DNA from: Vicugna vicugna
Lineage: Eukaryota
DNA length: 64,000 bases
Direction of reading: 5' to 3'
Assembly: GCA_013265495.1 (NCBI GenBank)
Contig: MU058065.1
Location: forward strand, 7,378,302 to 7,442,301
The notes under the pieces: model-generated
The model's database searches: none
What the model was told of the DNA's origin: nothing
Seen by the model: the letters and a program-made list of their open reading frames with translations, nothing else
Translations under genes and position numbers: made by a program
Shown here: positions 17,986 through 59,856 of the stretch, piece by piece
Layout: every line of letters starts with the position of its first letter
How positions within the stretch are numbered: the first letter of the stretch is position 1

Positions 17986-19622
17986 GTCCAAGATTTGTAA
18001 ATGGGCAAGATAGGACTGAGTATCCTTTCAGTGGAGAACTAGGCAGTGTCTAGGGTATTTTCTGAAGATTACCTGATTATATTGAGATATTCCCCTTTGA
18101 CTGAACTTCTATTGCCTAAGTTATTTTATAATCCTGTAGAAGTAGAATTCAATTTGTAGAAAACAGAGTGATGCAAGTGATCTTTTCCAAAGCAATATAA
18201 TGAATCTTGTCCAGTAGAGATACAACTGAATTCTACACTGTAGAAAAGATGGCCCCATACAACACATTTTAAGATGCTTTATTTTTAAAAAAGAAGCTTT
18301 ACTGAGACAAAATTTTTATACCACACAATTCACCATTTAAAGTTTACTATTCAATTTTTTTTAGTATATTCACAGGATTGTACAAATATTACCACAAACT
18401 AATTTTTGTCCACCTTGTAAAGAATCTCCATACCTATTAATAGATGTCCCCTATTCCCGTCCATCATTTCCCTTCCCCTCCACCAGCCCTAAGCAACCAC
18501 TAATGTACTTTCTGTCTTTATAGATTTGCCTATTCTGGTGATTTCATATTAATGTAATCATAAATATGTGGTCTTTTGGGACTGGCTTCTTTCACTTAGC
18601 ATAATGTTTTCAAAGTTCATCCATGTAGCTTGTATTAATACTTCATTATTTATTCATTAAATAATATTCAGTCATATGAATATACCACATTTAGTTGATC
18701 TCTTCATCAGTTGGTGGGTATTTGGGTTATTTCTACTCTTTGGACAGTATAACTAATACTTATAGAAACGTTCACATATAAGTTTTTGTGTGGATGTATG
18801 TTTTAATTTCTTTTGGGTGTATGTTTAGCAGTGGAATTGCTGGGTCATATGGTAGGTCCATGTTTAATATTATGGGAAACTATCAAACTATTTTTCAAAC
18901 TGGTTATACCATTTTACATCCCTTCCATCAATATATCTGGATTCCAATTTCTCCACATTCTTGTCAACACTTATTATCATCCATCATTTCAATTATAGAC
19001 ATTTTAGCTGATATAAGGTAATAGCTTATTGTGATTTTCATTTGCATTTCACTAAGGACTAATGATATTGAACATTATTTCATGGACTTATTGACCATTT
19101 TTATATTTTTCTTGGAACAAAGTGCTTAAATGCTTTGTCCATTACGATTTTTGTCTTTTACTATTGAGTTTTAAAGGTGTATATTCTGTCTGTCAATTAA
19201 TCTATAACAAAGAAGGCAAGAACATATAATGGAGAAGAGACAGTCTCTTCAATAGTGGTACTGGGAAAACTGGACAGCTACATGTAAAACAATGAAAGTA
19301 GACCATTTTGTAACACAATATACAATAGTAAACTCAAAATGGATCGAAGACCTCAATGTTAGACCAGAAATCTAAAACTCCTAGAAGAAAACATAAGCAG
19401 AACACTCTTTGACATAAATCATAAGCAATACTTTTTTTGGATCTCTCTCCTAAAACAGAGGAAATAAAAGCAAAAATAAACAAATGGGACCTAATTAAAC
19501 TTAAAAGCTTTTAAACCTTTGACAAAATAAAGCAAAACAAAAAAACAACTTACAGAATAGGAAGAAATATTTGCAAATGATATGACCGATAAGGGATTAA
19601 TTTCCAAAATATATAAACGTCT

Positions 19623-21002
19623 AATTAAATACTACAATAGAAAAACTAGATTTGGTGGATATTTTCAGAGCTTTACACCCCCCAAAAATAGAATATACAT
19701 TCTTTTCAAGTGCACATGGAACATTTTCCAGGATCGATCATGTACTTGGACACAAAAGAAACCTCAACAAATTTAAGAAGATAGAAATTATCTCAAGCAT
19801 CTTTACTGACCACAATGCCATGAAACTGGAAATCAACAACAGAGAAACAAAGGAGAAAAAAAGAAAAGCATGGAGATTAAACAATATGTTATTGAAAAAA
19901 CAATGGATCAATGAGGAAATCAAAGCTGAAATTAAAAAATACCTTGAGACAAATGATAATGAAAGCACAACCACTCAAAACCTATGGGACACAGCAAAGG
20001 CAGTGCTAAGAGGGAAGTTTATAGCGATACAGGCCTTCCTCAAAAAAGAAGAACAATCTCAAATAAACAAGTTAACCCACCACCTGAATCAATTAGAAAA
20101 AGAAGAACAAAAAGCCCCAAAAAGCAGCAGAAGGAAGGAAATAATAAAGATCAGAGAGGAATTAAATACAATAGAGATTAACAAGACCATAGAAAAAATC
20201 AACCAAACCAAAAGCTGGTTTTTTGAAAAAGTAAATAAAATCGACAAACCTCTGGCCAAACTCACAAAGAAGAAAAAAGAGAGAGCACAAATTAGCAAAA
20301 TAAGAAAGGAAAATGGAGAAATTACAACAAACAAAATAGAAATACAGAATATCATACGAGAATATTATGAAAAACTATATGGAACCAAACTGGATAACCT
20401 AGAGGAGATGGACAAGTTTCTGGAAACATACTGTCCACCAAAACTGAATCAAGAAGAAACTGAACACTTGAACAATCCGATCACTAGAAAGGAAATAGAA
20501 ATAGCAATTAAAAACCTCCCTACAAATAAAAGTCCAGGACCGGACGGCTTCACCGGGGAATTCTACCAAACATACAAAGAAGAACTCATACCAGTCCTTC
20601 TCAAACTCTTCCAGACGATTGAAAAGGAGGGAATACTCCCAAACTCATTCTATGAAGCCACCATCACCCTGATACCAAAACCAGGCAAAGACACTACAAA
20701 AAAAGAGAATTATAGGCCAATATCACTGATGAACATAGACGCCAAAATCCTCACCAAAATTTTAGCAAATAGAATCCAACAACACATAAAAAAGATTATA
20801 CATCATGACCAAGTGGGGTTCATCCCAGGGACACAAGGCTGGTTCAACATACGCAAATCAATCAATGTAATACATCACATCAACAAGAGAAAGGACAAAA
20901 ACCACATGATCATCTCAATCGATGCAGAAAAAGCATTTGATAAAATTCAACACCCATTTATGATAAAAACTCTTGCCAAAGTGGGTATAGAGGGAACATA
21001 TC
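19623..21002 (+). mobile_element. Young internal L1 ORF2 fragment (endonuclease C-terminus, Z domain, start of RT); open frame, both ends truncated
   Basis: About 460 uninterrupted codons: [81 protein letters not shown]. Stops at GIEGTY, before the YADD motif, so it is non-functional. Corresponds to ORF 19652-21061. Confidence 0.95.
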
Positions 21003-21367
21003 ATAAACTCATCTTCAAAGGAACCAAACAACCAGATTTTAAAAATGGGCAGAAGACCTGAATAGACATTTTCCCAAAGAAGACATACAGATAGCCAACA
21101 GACACATGAAAAGATGCTCAAGATTACTAATCATCAGAGAAATGCAAATTAAAACCACAATGAGGTGTCACCTCACAGTTGTCAAAATGGCTGTCATCAT
21201 AAAGAACACAAATAACAAATGTTGGTGAGAATGTGGAGAAAAGGGAACCCTTGTACACTGTTAGTGGGAATGTAAATTAGTACAGCCTTTGTGGAAGCCA
21301 GGATGGAAATTTCTCAAAAAACTAAAAATGGAACTACCATATGACCCAGTAATTTCACTCCTGGGTA

Positions 21368-32015: not shown

Positions 32016-32480
32016 ATACAGTGGAATACTATTCAGCCATAAAAACTAACAACATAATGCCATTTGCAGCAACATGGATGCTCCTGGAGAGTGTCATTCT
32101 AAGTGAACTAAGCCAGAAAGAGAAAGAAAAATACCATAGGAGATTGCTCATATGTGGAATCTAAAAAANNNNNNNNNNNNNNNNNNNNNNNNNNNNAAAT
32201 ACAAAACAGAAACAGGCTCATAGATATAGAATACAAACTTGTGGTTGCCAAGGGGGGGTAGGAAGGGATAGACTGGGATTACAAAATTGTAGAATAGATA
32301 AACAAGATTATACTGTATAGCACAGGGAAATATACACAAGATCTTATGATAGCTCACAGAGAAAAAAATGTGACAATGAATATATATGTATGTTCATGTA
32401 TAACTGAAAAATTGTGCTCTACACTGGAATTTGACACAACACTGTAAAATGATTATAAATCAATAAAAAATTGTTAAAAA
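32016..32480 (+). mobile_element. Young 5'-truncated L1 (ORF2 end and 3' UTR), camelid-like
   Basis: YTVEYYSAIK...MPFAATWMLLESVILSE; 3' end aatcaataaaaaattgttaaaaa; probable TSD aaatttttttt (32005-32015, 32478-32488) at a TT/AAA site. Confidence 0.9.
32169..32196. other. Assembly gap (28 N)
   Basis: Run of n inside the A-rich linker of the L1. Confidence 0.99.
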
Positions 32481-36961: not shown

Positions 36962-37073
36962 CAAGGGAGCAGGGGGCAAGGGAGGAGGGGGGGCAAGGGA
37001 ACAGGGGGCAAGGGAGTAGGGGGGGCAAGGGAGTAGGGGGGGCAAGGGAGTGAGGGGGCAAAGACAGTAGGGG
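36962..37073 (+). repeat. G-rich minisatellite, ~7 units of 15-17 bp (caagggagtaggggggg)
   Basis: caaggga recurs at 36962, 36977, 36994, 37009, 37026, 37043. Confidence 0.9.
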
Positions 37074-37129
37074 ATGGGGGAGGAGGAGGATGAAGGCAGA
37101 AGTAGTAACAGAAAGAAGCAGAATTGTAG

Positions 37130-37640
37130 AAATTGGAGAATGACTGATAAGCCATTTATTGAGTTAAAAAGCTGCAGAATGCCAATGGTTTGGAGTGGAT
37201 TTATGCACTGCTGTTGGGAGTGTTGCCAGGGACAGTCTTTCTGGAGAGCAATCTGACACAACTTAGTCAAATTAAAATGAATACTACATGTATTTCCCAA
37301 GAATATCTCACATAGGCACATAAGGGGATTTATGTGAAGATGTTCATTATAGTGTTATTTGTAGTGACTGGCAGTTGGCAACAATCTGGAAATGCATCAA
37401 TAGGGATTATATAGGCAACATGTATCATGGGGAACTAAGCAACTATGAACATTAACAGCCTAAAGGAACTTTTAATAATACAGATGAACTTATATATAGT
37501 GATGAGTGAAAAAGGTAAGAACAGAAGGAGACATATAATAAAGCAGCATTTTTCAAGATGAAAAATACAGATATTAAAGAAATACATACTTTACAAGAAC
37601 ATGTACAAACCAAAAGATATACACTAAACCCAAAAAAGAG
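37130..37640 (+). mobile_element. Ancient L1 (L1ME-like) 3' fragment
   Basis: cactgctgttgggagtgt...ttctggagagcaatctgaca...gaagatgttcattatagtgttatttgtagtg. Confidence 0.6.
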
Positions 37641-37641
37641 G

Positions 37642-37774
37642 GTGGAGGGGTATAGCTCAGTGGTCAAGCATGTGCCTGGTGTGCCTAAGGTCCTTGGTTC
37701 AAACTCCAGTGCCTCTGTTAAGGGGGGGGGGGAATAAATAAGCTAAATTTAATATTTAAAAAAAAAGAAAAAAA
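37642..37774 (+). mobile_element. tRNA-derived SINE (camelid vic-1-like)
   Basis: ggaggggtatagctcagtgg (A box) ... ggttcaaactcc (B box), A-rich tail. Confidence 0.8.
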
Positions 37775-38850: not shown

Positions 38851-40090
38851 TGCACAGCCTGTGTCTGGAGCCTGTGACACACTATTTGAGGTGATCCTTC
38901 AGGCTCTTCTTCTCCCACCCCGTGCCTTTTGTTAAGTCTCAACACCAATTGGGAGAGCCTTGGATTCCTATTGCATGAATATCAACCTGGGAGTTAGGCT
39001 GTGGTCACCACCAAGTCCATGGTGCTGTTTGGTAGTTAACGTATGTGGTAGTAGAGTTTAGCCTCAGTGTTGTTTGTTTTTCAACTCTGCATGGAGTAAC
39101 TTGATATTTCTGGGTGTGTTTTCAATTTTCTTGGCAACTAGAGCATCATAGGACTGTATTTCCCACCCTTACTCTCTGGGTTTTGCCACATCTTTTCTCC
39201 ACCAGCCCTTCTCTGAGTCTCCTCCCACACCAGAATCTGATTGGTCCTTCCCTGGAAGTCCTTTAAAACTATATTTGTCACTTTCTTAGGAGTCATATCT
39301 TTATTCTAGTGGTACATGTGCTTATCCTTACTATGCCTTGTTTAGAGTAGGAGCCCTTAAATGAGTCCTTGCCTGCTTTACCTTTAAGTAGCTTGGTGTC
39401 TGCCATGTAGGGGCACATAAAAGACGCCCAGTGAACCAAAGAGCTGTGAACCCACCCTTCGGGTCACCCAGACTGCATGAAGTAAGGGGACTTTGATGAG
39501 TCACAGGCCCTACTGGTGTAAAGAAAGATTCAAGGGACCAGCAGCACCATCTGACATCAGTTTTCAAGCTCTCCATTGCTTTTCCTGGAAGGATCATGAA
39601 CTTAGCACTGTTACACTCCACTGGTTCTAAGACTTGGGGCTTTCAGTTACTACCATTCATTGTTATGAATCTACTCAGGAAACATTTATGAAGTGCCTAC
39701 TTGTAGCTGACTGAGGGCCCAGGATTAAGAAGACTAAAATGTGAGTCTTGCCTATGAGAGGCCATGGTCTGATGGGAAACATAAATGGAGGCAAAAAACT
39801 AAAATTCAATAGCAAAAAGAAATGTTAACAGTAGAGATGTGAGCAATTGGGAGCAAGTGGACCACAGTGAAACTTTTCACAGTAAAATGTTGGGAGAATA
39901 AAGGGAGTGACTGAATCTTTGGATGTTCTTTGAAGTAGAATTTGAGCAAGAAAACGGAAGAAACTAAAGACCTGGAATGACCTGTTTTTTGCTGCACTTT
40001 TCTCCAACAACACGTGCCAAAGCTCAGAAACATGAGGGAGAAGGTATACTTTGGGTGATGATGAGTACTTCTGTACTGAGATAAGGGTGC

Positions 40091-40732
40091 TTGAAAGAGG
40101 GGCAGAGTTTATAGTGGCTAAAAGTACAGACATCCTAGGTTCAAATGCCAGCTTGGCATTCACTAGCTTTGTAACCTGGGAGAAGTTGCTCAAGATCTTT
40201 GTGCTTTAATTTTTTAATCTATAAAAATACGGGTAACATTATCTACCTTATAAGACTGCTTTCAATGTTAGATCTGTTAACATCATCATCATCATCACCA
40301 ACATCATCTTAGGAAAGCTTATCCTCTCAATTCATCAAAGCTTAGAGTCTTCTCCCTGGCTCCACCTCACCCCTTGTTGAATGAGAAGCTTCTAGAGAGA
40401 CTCAGCTAGAAGCGGAAAGGAAGAGCGAGAGGAAGAGCCACAGTGAATGAGGTTGGGGTAAACTGAATGGGAGTCTGGGGTCCAAGAAAGAAAGTCAAAC
40501 ACTCAGGTACCAGTCAGATAGATGAACACAAGAGACCCCAGGCGTTTGCTCATGTCAACCTCATGCACGTGGCTTCTAATGCTATATTTAAAATGTTGGT
40601 GAAATTATAATCCTGTTGTAGTTCCTTTGGAGGCTGGTTCATTAATCTAGGCAGTGTGTGTGGCTGGCAGGTAGCCAGCATCATCCCCTGACTCCCATCC
40701 CCATGTGACTCAGCACAAATCAGACACTTTAA
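40091..40732 (+). repeat. Inverted repeat, left arm (642 bp; includes a MIR at ~40108-40300)
   Basis: Ungapped match to reverse complement of 44122-44763; 11 mismatches by manual alignment. Confidence 0.97.
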
Positions 40733-40910
40733 TATCTTCTGATCCCAAGTTTGAACTTGCCCCTAAAGAAAGCCTGCCTCTCCCTATCCACTTTCTCCCC
40801 ACCTTCACAATCCATACCCCACTTCCAATTTATCAGCTAGTAAATTCTGAGTTGAACTTGGAGCCAGAGTTTCATTTGGTTTTGGCAAAGAATCAACTTC
40901 TTCCAAGAAA

Positions 40911-40913
<3 letters not shown>

Positions 40914-40942
<29 letters not shown>
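40914..40942 (+). repeat. Poly(A) run
   Basis: Direct reading. Confidence 0.9.
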
Positions 40943-40944
<2 letters not shown>

Positions 40945-42010
40945 AGGCTGTGGAAGGGAAGGTTTAAAAAAAGCCTAGCTAAACAAAAAGGGCTCATGGA
41001 AACAGCCCCACAACATTAAGTAACTCAGTGCAGAGTGCAGAGAGAGCAGTTCTTTTTGATGCATTAAGTGCGGATGAATTTAAAACAATGTTGGAAATGC
41101 TCTGAACATGCAATTGGGGTTACCAACAAAGCACAGATAGGCTCCTGGTTTGGAGAGGTCATGGGATCACCAGTCATTAGCGGGTGACTTCAGAGCTGGA
41201 GAGAGGGTCTGGAGGTGATCATGGCACCCACACTCATTTTCATTCTGGATTGTGTAACATCCTTACGCTTGTGAATAGCAGAAGATTTGGTGATCTAAGA
41301 CTCTGCCCTGTTGGGTCTGTCAACCCCCTGAAGACCAAGAGACATTTCTGGCAGTGTACAGTATCCCAAGCTACAGAAAAAGACGTGGGAGTGGTTCAAC
41401 TCCACTTATAATGAGAAAAGTACAAGTCAAACTATCAAACTGGAAAAAAAATTAAGTTTGATCATCACCGTCAGCTTGGAAAAAATATTTTAAAGTTTAA
41501 TAGCATCCACTACTGGAATTGGTAGGGGAAAATGGCCACTCTCTAACATTGTAGCTTTTAATGTAAATGCTATTACCCTTTTGGAAGGAAATTTGACCAT
41601 ATTTTTCTCTGCTTCTGTTATCCCCCCTTTTTTCATTCCTTCTTTCATTCATTCTCCTTCCACAGGCCATCATTCCCCATATATTTAATGTTTATTATTT
41701 TGCATATATTCTTGTAAAATGTGACATACTGATTTTTTTCTCCATTTTATTTTAGTTAAACTTTTTATTGAAGTATAGTTGATTCATTTCAGATATATAG
41801 CATAGAGCAATTCAGTATTTTTACAGATTATACTCCATTAAAAGTTACTACAAGGTAATGGCTATAATTCCCTGTGCTATACAATATACCCTTGTTGCTT
41901 ATCTATTTTATACATAGTAGTTTGTATCTCTTAATCCTATACCCCTAACTTGCCCCTCCCTGTTTTCCTGGTAACCTCTAGTTTCTTTCTATCTGTGAGT
42001 CTGTTTCTAT

Positions 42011-42155
42011 TTTTTGTTTGTTTGTTTTTTGTTTCTTTTTATTGGGGGAGGTAATTAGGTTTATTAATTTATTTTTTAATAGAGGTACTGGGGATTGAAC
42101 CCAGGGCCTCCTGCATGCTAAGCACCCACTCTATCACTGAGCCATACCCTCCCCT
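42011..42155 (-). mobile_element. tRNA-derived SINE (camelid vic-1-like) nested in L1
   Basis: gaggtactggggattgaacccaggg...ctgagccataccctcccc; T-rich tail; flanked by tgtttctattt / tgtttctgttt. Confidence 0.88.
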
Positions 42156-42548
42156 CTTGTTTCTGTTTTGCTGCATAAATTCATTTACATTATTTTTTAG
42201 ATTCCACATGTAAATGATATCGTACAGTATTTGTCTTTCTCTGTCTGATTTATTTCACTAAGCTCAATATTCTCTAGATCCATCTGTGTTGCTGCAAATG
42301 GCAGAATTTCATTCTTTTTATGGCTGAGTTATTTTCCATTCTATATCTGTATACATACCACATCTTTTTTAGTCCATTCATCTCTTGATGGACACTTCAA
42401 TTGCTTCCATATCTTGACTATTATAAGTAGTGCTGCTATGAACATTGGGGTGCATGTATCTTTTCTAATTAGTGTTTTCATTTTTTTCCAAATATATACT
42501 AATAAGCAGAATTTCTGGACTATATGGAAATTCTATTTTTACTTTTTT

Positions 42549-42567
42549 AAAACATTTTTTATTGATT
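42549..42567 (-). mobile_element. Ultra-short L1 3'-tip insertion
   Basis: aacattttttattgatt matches the young L1 terminus seen at 59593; flanked by tattttta(c/g)tttttt duplicates. Confidence 0.7.
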
Positions 42568-44121
42568 TATTTTTAGTTTTTTGAGGAACTTTCATACTGT
42601 TTTCCATAGTGGCTGCAGCAATTTACATTCCTATCAGCAGTGTACAAGAGTTCCCTTTTCTGCACATCCTCCCAACATTTGCTTTTTGTAGACTTTTTGA
42701 TGATAGCCATTCTGAGAGGTGTGAGGTGATACTTTGTTGTTGTATTGGTTTGCATTTCTCTAATAATTAGCAATTTTCACATGCTTGTTAGCCATCTATA
42801 TGTCTTCTTTGGAAAAATGTCTATTCAGGCCTTCTGCCCATTATTTGATTGGGTTGTTTGGTTTCTTGATATTGAGTTGTATGAGATCTTGGTATATTTT
42901 GGATATTAACCCCTTATCAGTCATATCATTAGCAAATATTTTCTTCCATTCAGTAGGTTGTCTTTTTGTTTTGTCAATGGTTTCCTTTGCTGTGCAAAAG
43001 CTTTTAAGTTTAATTAGGTGCCATTGGTTTATTTTTGCTTTTATTTCTTTTGCTTTAGGAGACAGACCCCCCCTCCAAATTACTATGATTTATGTCAGTG
43101 TTCTGACTATGTCCTCTTCTAGGAGTTCTCTAGGAGTTTTAAGGTTTTAAGTCTTATACTGAGTTCTTTAATCCATTTTGAGTTTATTTTTGTATACAAG
43201 AAAATGTTCTAATCTCATTGCTTTATATATGACTATTCAGTTTTCCCAGCATCACTTATTGAAGAGACTGTCTTTTTCCTCCACTGTATACTCTTGCCTC
43301 TTTTGTCATAGATTAATTGATCATATGTTCATGGGTTTATTTCAGGGCTCTCTGTTTTGTTCCATTGATCCATGTGTCTGTTTATGTGCCAGTATCATGC
43401 TGTTTTGATTACTGTAGCTTTGTAGTATAGTATGAAATCTGGAAGGGTGATACCTCAAGTTTTGTTTCTTTTCCAAGATTGCTTTGGTAATTTAGGGTCT
43501 ATTGTGATTCCATATGAATTTTAGGATTATTTGTTCTAGTTTTGTAAACATGGGTATTTTTATAGGGATTGCATTAAATCTGTGGATTGCTTTGGGTAGT
43601 ATGGTCATTTTAACAATATTAATTCTCCCACTCCAATAGCATGAGATATCTTTCCATTTCTTAGTAGCATCTTCAATTTCCTTCATCAGTGTTTTACAGT
43701 TTCCTTATATAGGTCTTTTACCTCCTTGGTTAAGCATATTCCTAGGTATTTCATTTTTTTGAAGTGATTTCAAATAGTATTTTCCAAAACTTTCTCTTAC
43801 TGATATTTCATTTTCAGTGTACAGAAAAGTAACAGATTTCTGTATATTAATTTTGTATCCTTCAACTTTGTTGAATTCATTTATTTGTTCTAATAGTTTT
43901 GGAGTGAAGACTTTAGGGTTTCCTTTGTAAAATATTGTGTCATTTGCAGATAGTGACAGTTTTACTTCTTCCCTTTCAATTTGGATGTCTTTTATTTCTT
44001 TTTCCTATCTTATTGCTGTTGATAAGACTTCCAATACTAATTAAATACAATGTTAAATGTGTTAAATACAAGTGGTAAGAGTAGCCTTATTGTCTTGTTC
44101 ACAAATTTAAAGGAAAGGCTT

Positions 44122-44763
44122 TTAAAGTGTCTGATTTGTGCTGAGTCACATGGGGTTGGGAATCAGGGGATGATGCTGGCTACCTGCCAGCCACACACAC
44201 TGCCTAGATTAATGAACCAGCCTCCAAAGGAACTACAACAGGATTATAATTTCACCAACATTTTAAATATAGCATTAGAAGCCACGTGCATGAGGTTGAC
44301 ATGAGCAAACGCCTGGGGTCTCTTGTGTTCATCTATCTGACTGGTACCTGAGTGTTTGACTTTCTTTCTTGGACCCCAGACTCCCATTCAGTTTACCCCA
44401 ACCTCATTCACTGTGGCTCTTCCTCTCGCTCTTCCTTTCCTCCTCCAGCTGAATCTCTCTAGAAGCTTCTCATTCAACAAGGGGTGAGGTGGAGCCAGGG
44501 AGAAGACTCTAAGCTTTGATGAATTGAGAGGATAAGCTTTCCTAAGATGATGTTGGTGATGATGATGATGATGTTAACAGATCTAACATTGAAAGCAGTC
44601 TTATAAGGTAGATAATGTTACCCGTATTTTTATAGATTAAAAAATTAAAGCACAAAGATCTTGAGCAACTTCTCCCAGGTTACAAAGCTAGTGAATGCCA
44701 AGCTGGCATTTGAACCTAGGATGTCTGTTCTCTTAGCCACTACAGCCTCTGCCCCTCTTTCAA
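44122..44763 (-). repeat. Inverted repeat, right arm (642 bp)
   Basis: Reverse complement of 40091-40732; abuts the L1 5' truncation point. Confidence 0.97.
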
Positions 44764-44890
44764 CCAATTTCTCTAGTGATAGATTCTCAACTTGCCTCTA
44801 ACTCTACACTTTTGCCAAAAAACGAAAAAAAAAAAAGATGTAATGATCATTGTTGTATATGTTTCTTTATGAACATGTATGAAAATTTTT

Positions 44891-59583: not shown

Positions 59584-59856
59584 TTTTTTTTTAACATTTT
59601 TTATTGATTTATAATCATTTTACAATGTTGTGTCAAATTCCAGTGTTCAGCACAATTTCCCAGTCATTCATGGACATATACACACTCGTTGTCACATTCT
59701 TTTCTCTGTGACTTATCATAACATTTTGTGTATATTTCCCTGTGCTATACAGTGTAATCTTGTTTATCTATTCTACAATTTTGAAATCCCAGTCTATCCC
59801 TTCCCACCCTCTACCCCCCTGGTAACCACAAGTCTGTATTCTCTGTCCATGAGTCT
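59584..59856 (-). mobile_element. Young L1 3' UTR fragment, same family as 32016-32480
   Basis: ttttaacattttttattgatttataatcattttacaatgttgtgtcaaattccagtg; TSD core catggatg (59576-59583, 59865-59872). Confidence 0.9.

Follow-up and report, generated by a model that had tools for sequence, protein, structure and literature searches.

A small inverted duplication beside an old L1 element in Vicugna vicugna, with clustered arm differences that suggest gene conversion

Two inverted copies of a 642-nt sequence lie on either side of a decayed L1 element in the 64,000-nt stretch of Vicugna vicugna DNA analysed here (the window). In an ungapped comparison the arms are 98.3% identical, with 11 substitutions and no indels, and in the assembled sequence these mismatches are clustered beyond chance. 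The L1 itself is old. We favour, at slightly better than even confidence, an explanation in which the second arm was made as a fold-back copy at the 5′ end of the L1 and the two arms have since been homogenised by gene conversion between them.

The inverted arms and the distribution of their differences

The region contains the following features, with strand in parentheses.

40091–40732 (+): left arm and probable donor copy, MIR-like in its outer third
40108–40125: mismatch cluster 1, with 5 sites over 18 nt; 17 nt separate it from the outer end
40126–40400: perfect tract 1, 275 nt, with a (CAT)n array within it
40401–40413: mismatch cluster 2, with 4 sites over 13 nt
40414–40691: perfect tract 2, 278 nt
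40692–40698: mismatch cluster 3, with 2 sites over 7 nt; 34 nt separate it from the inner end
40733–41754 (no strand): single-copy part of the spacer, about 1 kb, with a 29-nt A run at 40914–40942
41740–41754 with 44764–44777 (+): candidate decayed target-site duplication, 11/15 matches, score 6
41755–44121 (−): 5′-truncated, decayed L1, comprising ORF2 from within the RT domain and the 3′ UTR; 3′ boundary approximate
42007–42156 (−): tRNA-type SINE, a later insertion in the L1 3′ UTR; boundaries approximate
42545–42575 (−): second and very short later insertion, identified by eye as a T-rich tail with short flanks that resemble each other
44122–44763 (−): right arm, the inverted copy, directly adjoining the point of L1 5′ truncation

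The arms are 3389 nt apart. Proceeding inwards along the left arm, 17 identical nt are followed by cluster 1, 275 identical nt, cluster 2, 278 identical nt, cluster 3 and a final 34 identical nt. The mismatched sites (40108, 40109, 40111, 40122, 40125, 40401, 40408, 40411, 40413, 40692 and 40698) agree base for base with those listed in an earlier sequence-only reading; the perfect tracts, which it had put at about 275 and 278 bp, measure 275 and 278 nt, and the identity that it described across the (CAT)n repeat is borne out by an array that is the same in both arms. That reading gave no position for the right arm. Its suggestion that divergence has been left at the edges does not hold, however. 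The arms match completely over their outermost 17 and innermost 34 nt, and no homology above that of shuffled sequences continues past the arm ends. Identical ends of these lengths have probabilities of 0.04 and 0.001, respectively, at 10% decay per arm. The edges are thus not simply unconverted, and their identity counts against the conversion reading.

When 11 mismatches were placed at random 200,000 times, no placement yielded two clean runs of 275 nt or longer, and 2.0% yielded a single such run; under a model of uniform divergence the observed pattern has a frequency of at most 0.0002. Of the differences, 7 are transitions and 4 transversions, and G/C alleles occur on the left arm (three) as well as on the right (six), as in ordinary accumulated change; this counts for conversion between old arms. 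At both 40401 and 40692 the left arm has C and the right arm T within an identical five-base context, which is probably a coincidence.

The left arm gives weak matches to dispersed repeat copies within the window, and the repeat-like outer third belongs to a family that we take to be MIR. We presume the left arm to be the native copy, partly on the basis of repeat consensus sequences. Sequence words from 39500–40900, an interval that covers the left arm and its flanks and says nothing on the right arm, are found in 20 of the 24 listed sequencing runs (10 studies, three organism labels) at 0.92–0.99 of the 144 words sampled. One of these 20 runs is a possible source, and the remaining four, at 0.00–0.04, provide no evidence. 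A misassembled second haplotype was considered and is judged unlikely by reasoning, given a clustered difference of 1.7% and no indels. Elsewhere in the window, 1443–1507 and 2208–2272 form a 65-nt inverted pair, 86% complementary and 700 nt apart.

The L1 element and the origin of the copy

The identity of the L1 is established by PDB matches to human ORF2p (E ∼1e-16) and by an open piece of 99 residues that matches L1 ORF2p. As the sequence-only reading had noted, its ORF2 is fragmented and the element carries two later insertions, the SINE at about 42007–42156 and the T-rich tail at about 42545–42575. There are 10 stops in 424 aligned codons, some of which may represent out-of-frame run-on. 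The frame changes 8 times along 14 colinear pieces; a fifteenth, off-diagonal piece was dropped. The SINE is 73% identical to a copy at 37636–37721, which overlaps an Rfam tRNA match; adjoining that copy is a G-rich minisatellite at 36962–37086, with periods of 17, 32 and 49.

At modal positions of the alignment with its homologues the L1 retains 49 of 72 residues, whereas the homologues themselves match the modal residue at a median of 85% and, at best, 96% (81/85 homologues). Calibrated on this comparison, its decay is about 0.10–0.18 substitutions per site, with wide sampling error; judging by the stops and shifts of frame, the higher values are the likelier. A camel mutation rate of 2.5e-8 per five-year generation, as summarised in PMC8605555, gives the L1 an age of about 20–36 million years, and a slower rate would make it older. 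Independent decay of the arms at the level of the L1 predicts 113–159 mismatches, compared with the 11 observed in 642 nt. The earlier claim that the arms are more identical than the age of the L1 allows is therefore correct if, and only if, the copy and the L1 arose together.

A shared origin is suggested by three features of the junctions. The right arm abuts the L1 truncation point exactly, with microhomology of up to 4 nt; the last four bases of the arm correspond in frame to the Leu-Lys of the L1 motif EKLKAFPL, a pair carried by 23 of 38 motif matches among the homologues. At the donor end there is an endonuclease-like T-run/AA motif, scored against the published consensus site, and such a motif lies within 2 nt of 1.3% of positions. 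The candidate target-site duplication enclosing both L1 and copy lies where one would be expected but is not significant, its score of 6 being reached at 126 of 500 random sites and at 65/300 and 136/300 sites in the other control sets. Two alternative target-site layouts score 4 against 6, a comparison that is likewise uninformative.

On the reading that we favour, the L1 would have inserted at about 41755. Microhomology of a few bases would then have let synthesis switch, at the truncated 5′ end, to genomic DNA 1–1.7 kb away, from which 642 nt would have been copied in reverse before the far flank was rejoined. In its truncated L1, inverted nearby DNA and short microhomology, the locus resembles the L1 insertions with local inverted duplication outlined in bioRxiv 10.1101/2024.12.14.628481. 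The events described there are new, and somatic or experimental, whereas the element here is ancient, and they come with a target-site overlap that is not demonstrable here. Their copies derive from the reciprocal end through small hairpins and take DNA from the 5′ side; the donor here lies 1–1.7 kb off on the 3′ side, which counts against the favoured reading.

The lack of a demonstrable target-site duplication leaves room for a later event that cut the L1. One alternative, which we consider unlikely, is a very young duplication unrelated to the L1 insertion, in which replication-repair cut into the old L1 and pasted inverted nearby DNA. The three clusters would then have been made at once, by error-prone synthesis or short template switches, with almost no mutation since. 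Such an origin fits the lack of any isolated mismatch, the identical arm ends and the position of two clusters 17–40 nt from the junctions, and the L1 occupies so much of the spacer that a breakpoint inside it is unsurprising. Small inverted duplications with 1–15 bp of microhomology are, moreover, reported to be common in humans (277 polymorphic events, median 284 bp) and often to form with no L1 involved, and ‘non-tandem duplication with deletion’ is described as a recurring pattern. The young copy nevertheless requires less than about 0.5% divergence since its birth (probability 0.05 at 0.5% and 0.002 at 1%) together with 11 errors in a single pass, and the spectrum of the differences, free of indels, resembles ordinary substitution.

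The end of the spacer and the right outer flank were also considered as halves of one older L1. Both align in order to an old copy at 18300–19000, with scores of 67.6 and 88.9 that do not exceed the shuffle maxima of 71 and 90, and this candidate was rejected. Further L1 sequence is found in the window. A 478-codon open piece of L1 ORF2 at 19625–21058 (+; Pfam RVT_1, E 1e-21) lies inside an older same-strand L1, in which adjacent query positions map to 19613 and 20995. The piece lacks a 3′ end and tail of its own, and may represent an insertion truncated at the 3′ end, sequence converted by a young L1, or a misjoin. At 32214–32480 and 59588–59856, 27 kb apart, are two L1-like 3′ ends in opposed orientation that are 87% identical.

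Conversion, assembly and selection as possible sources of the pattern

Following duplication, arms 3.4 kb apart would repeatedly have repaired from each other, removing isolated differences. Tight groups of differences would persist where conversion tracts end at or skip them, and some groups may represent single multi-base events. In toy models of conversion the observed pattern is matched at frequencies of up to 0.05, compared with at most 0.0002 for uniform decay; matches occurred in all 24 settings, in 0.4–4.6% of 6000 runs. These models are coarse and their match rule was chosen after seeing the data, so that they rank the rivals only loosely. The clustering and the L1 age from which the sequence-only reading argued for gene conversion are both upheld, and conversion fits the pattern better than uniform decay does; the age of the duplication is one that we infer.

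The ratio of conversion to mutation needed is about 120 to over 370, between the values of about 20 given for human duplicates (bioRxiv 10.1101/135152) and about 4000 given for X-chromosome palindromes (PMC8981503). The average conversion rate summarised for human duplicates, 2.5e-7 per base per generation, is several-fold below the need of this locus (bioRxiv 10.1101/135152; PMC10172114), and this counts against the favoured reading. Duplicates are also reported to escape conversion as they diverge (bioRxiv 10.1101/135152). When conversion was made sensitive to mismatches, any match was obtained in 8 of 48 settings (40 runs), and in 2 of 24 at the age of the L1; the arms mostly turned identical or escaped altogether.

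It is equally conceivable, and to our minds equally improbable as a recent duplication, that the arms truly differ by a few percent and that the assembly erased isolated mid-arm differences by bubble merging, gap filling or polishing, keeping the groups near the flanks and one dense group. A later duplication and homogenisation by assembly or polishing were the alternatives named in the sequence-only reading. The window does come from a gapped assembly, with a single gap of 28 N at 32169–32196, inside L1 3′ sequence; this closest N is, however, 7.9 kb off. Differences close to the arm ends are those that a k-mer assembler retains, and clusters 1 and 3 are no more than about 40 nt from these ends. 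A toy model of this process, built on the bubble-merging rule of such assemblers, reproduces the pattern in 1.4% of runs at k=31 and 3% true divergence. That figure, about threefold below the best conversion settings, counts against the favoured reading, but it was never exceeded in 84 settings of 4000 runs. At 10% true divergence there were no matches at all, and bubble merging thus cannot hide divergence of L1 age. Such erasure would still leave the arms much younger than the L1, or much more homogenised.

Selection might instead keep the arms paired, as a long hairpin RNA, or keep the clusters different, as in the divergence peaks of opsin duplicates; this we regard as very improbable. A transcript spanning both arms could form a long duplex, and divergence peaks under conversion are reported to be possible marks of selection. 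No gene was found near the arms, however: in a set of 39 long open frames and 148 of the 422 shorter ones, the sole Pfam match is to L1 RT, a single sub-threshold match to Osw5 being ignored. No kilobase has a CpG observed/expected ratio above 0.5, and in the two ranges scanned with Rfam, which lie outside the arms and spacer, the only match is a SINE-borne tRNA. The inverted duplication is most likely neutral.

Local inverted repeats and comparison with known systems

The alleles at the difference sites are distributed unequally with respect to short inverted repeats. Of the 11 alleles on each arm, six on the left and none on the right pair in perfect inverted repeats of 8–9 nt inside 250 nt, and three further left-arm alleles fall in a 7-nt repeat. 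In cluster 2 it is the left alleles at 40408, 40411 and 40413 that make the 8-bp stem with 40388–40395 perfect, and those of cluster 3 sit in a 9-nt reverse complement of 40467–40475. Controls as good were found in 6 of 3000 cases for the cluster 2 stem alone and in 1 of 400 for the six-site completion. Sliding the clusters gives P = 0.06–0.43 for four matches of 8–9 nt, a symmetric null gives 63, 14 and 37 of 600 at 60, 250 and 500 nt, and for the left-allele excess overall P is 0.02–0.1. The completion of local inverted repeats by left-arm alleles is thus a weak lead. Templating of the clusters by direct repeats gave nothing (546–576 of 600 controls as good), and the eight MIR-like copies in the window are too decayed to serve for polarising the alleles. 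For a young duplication the lead is awkward, as the repeats are completed by alleles of the presumed donor arm and not of the copy.

Clustered substitutions that complete a local inverted repeat are also features of template-switch clusters as outlined in PMC5453318, PMC9435742 and bioRxiv 10.1101/2023.08.09.552703. The longest local reverse-complement matches here are 7, 8, 8 and 9 nt, unlike the template switches of PMC5453318, a human study that required at least 10 nt and in which matches under 12–13 nt are described as often due to chance. Gene conversion in yeast is reported to yield quasipalindrome errors (bioRxiv 10.1101/2023.08.09.552703), and if the lead is true the clusters would be single template-switch events such as yeast gene conversion produces. 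The fullest version of this idea, an L1-born 0.64-kb fold-back kept by conversion across 3.4 kb for tens of millions of years, with the differences as template-switch scars of conversion synthesis, we hold to be quite doubtful.

Conversion between inverted arms is itself known (PMC1803023), and the locus is a probable member of the class of miniature palindromes under conversion, judged from its sequence. Like the primate X-chromosome palindromes summarised in PMC8981503, it has inverted arms that are too alike for their age, provided that the age inference holds. Those palindromes have a median arm of 37 kb, over 99% identity and cross-species proof, whereas here the arms are 0.64 kb and 98.3% identical in a single sequence. 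For non-allelic conversion between human duplicates the mean tract is given as about 250 bp (bioRxiv 10.1101/135152; PMC10172114), close to the 275 and 278 nt of the perfect tracts. A similar patchiness is described among human inverted repeats (PMC3961182), where a 7-kb, 94%-identical pair contains a 782-bp stretch at 99.9%, and where inverted arms can flip the spacer between them; the repeats there are larger and the inversion was genotyped, whereas the present arms are known from assembled sequence. Each component is already known, namely L1-linked inverted duplication, inverted-arm conversion, patchy identity and template-switch clusters. Among titles and the opening parts of abstracts we found no account of this locus, and the supplements of L1 and inversion papers may hold closer examples.

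As a single locus, a probably neutral, non-coding inverted duplication matters little. Were conversion confirmed across species, however, it would be seen to keep arms of only 0.64 kb alike over roughly the time in which an old L1 has decayed. The rate of homogenisation would be well above the human average for duplicates, and small inverted duplications would be older than the identity of their arms suggests. With L1-anchored pairs collected across the genome, the limits that arm length and spacing set on conversion in mammals could be tested. If the differences do prove to be template-switch scars, L1-dated micro-palindromes would be datable recorders, in mammals, of the germ-line conversion rate and of conversion-linked mutagenesis.
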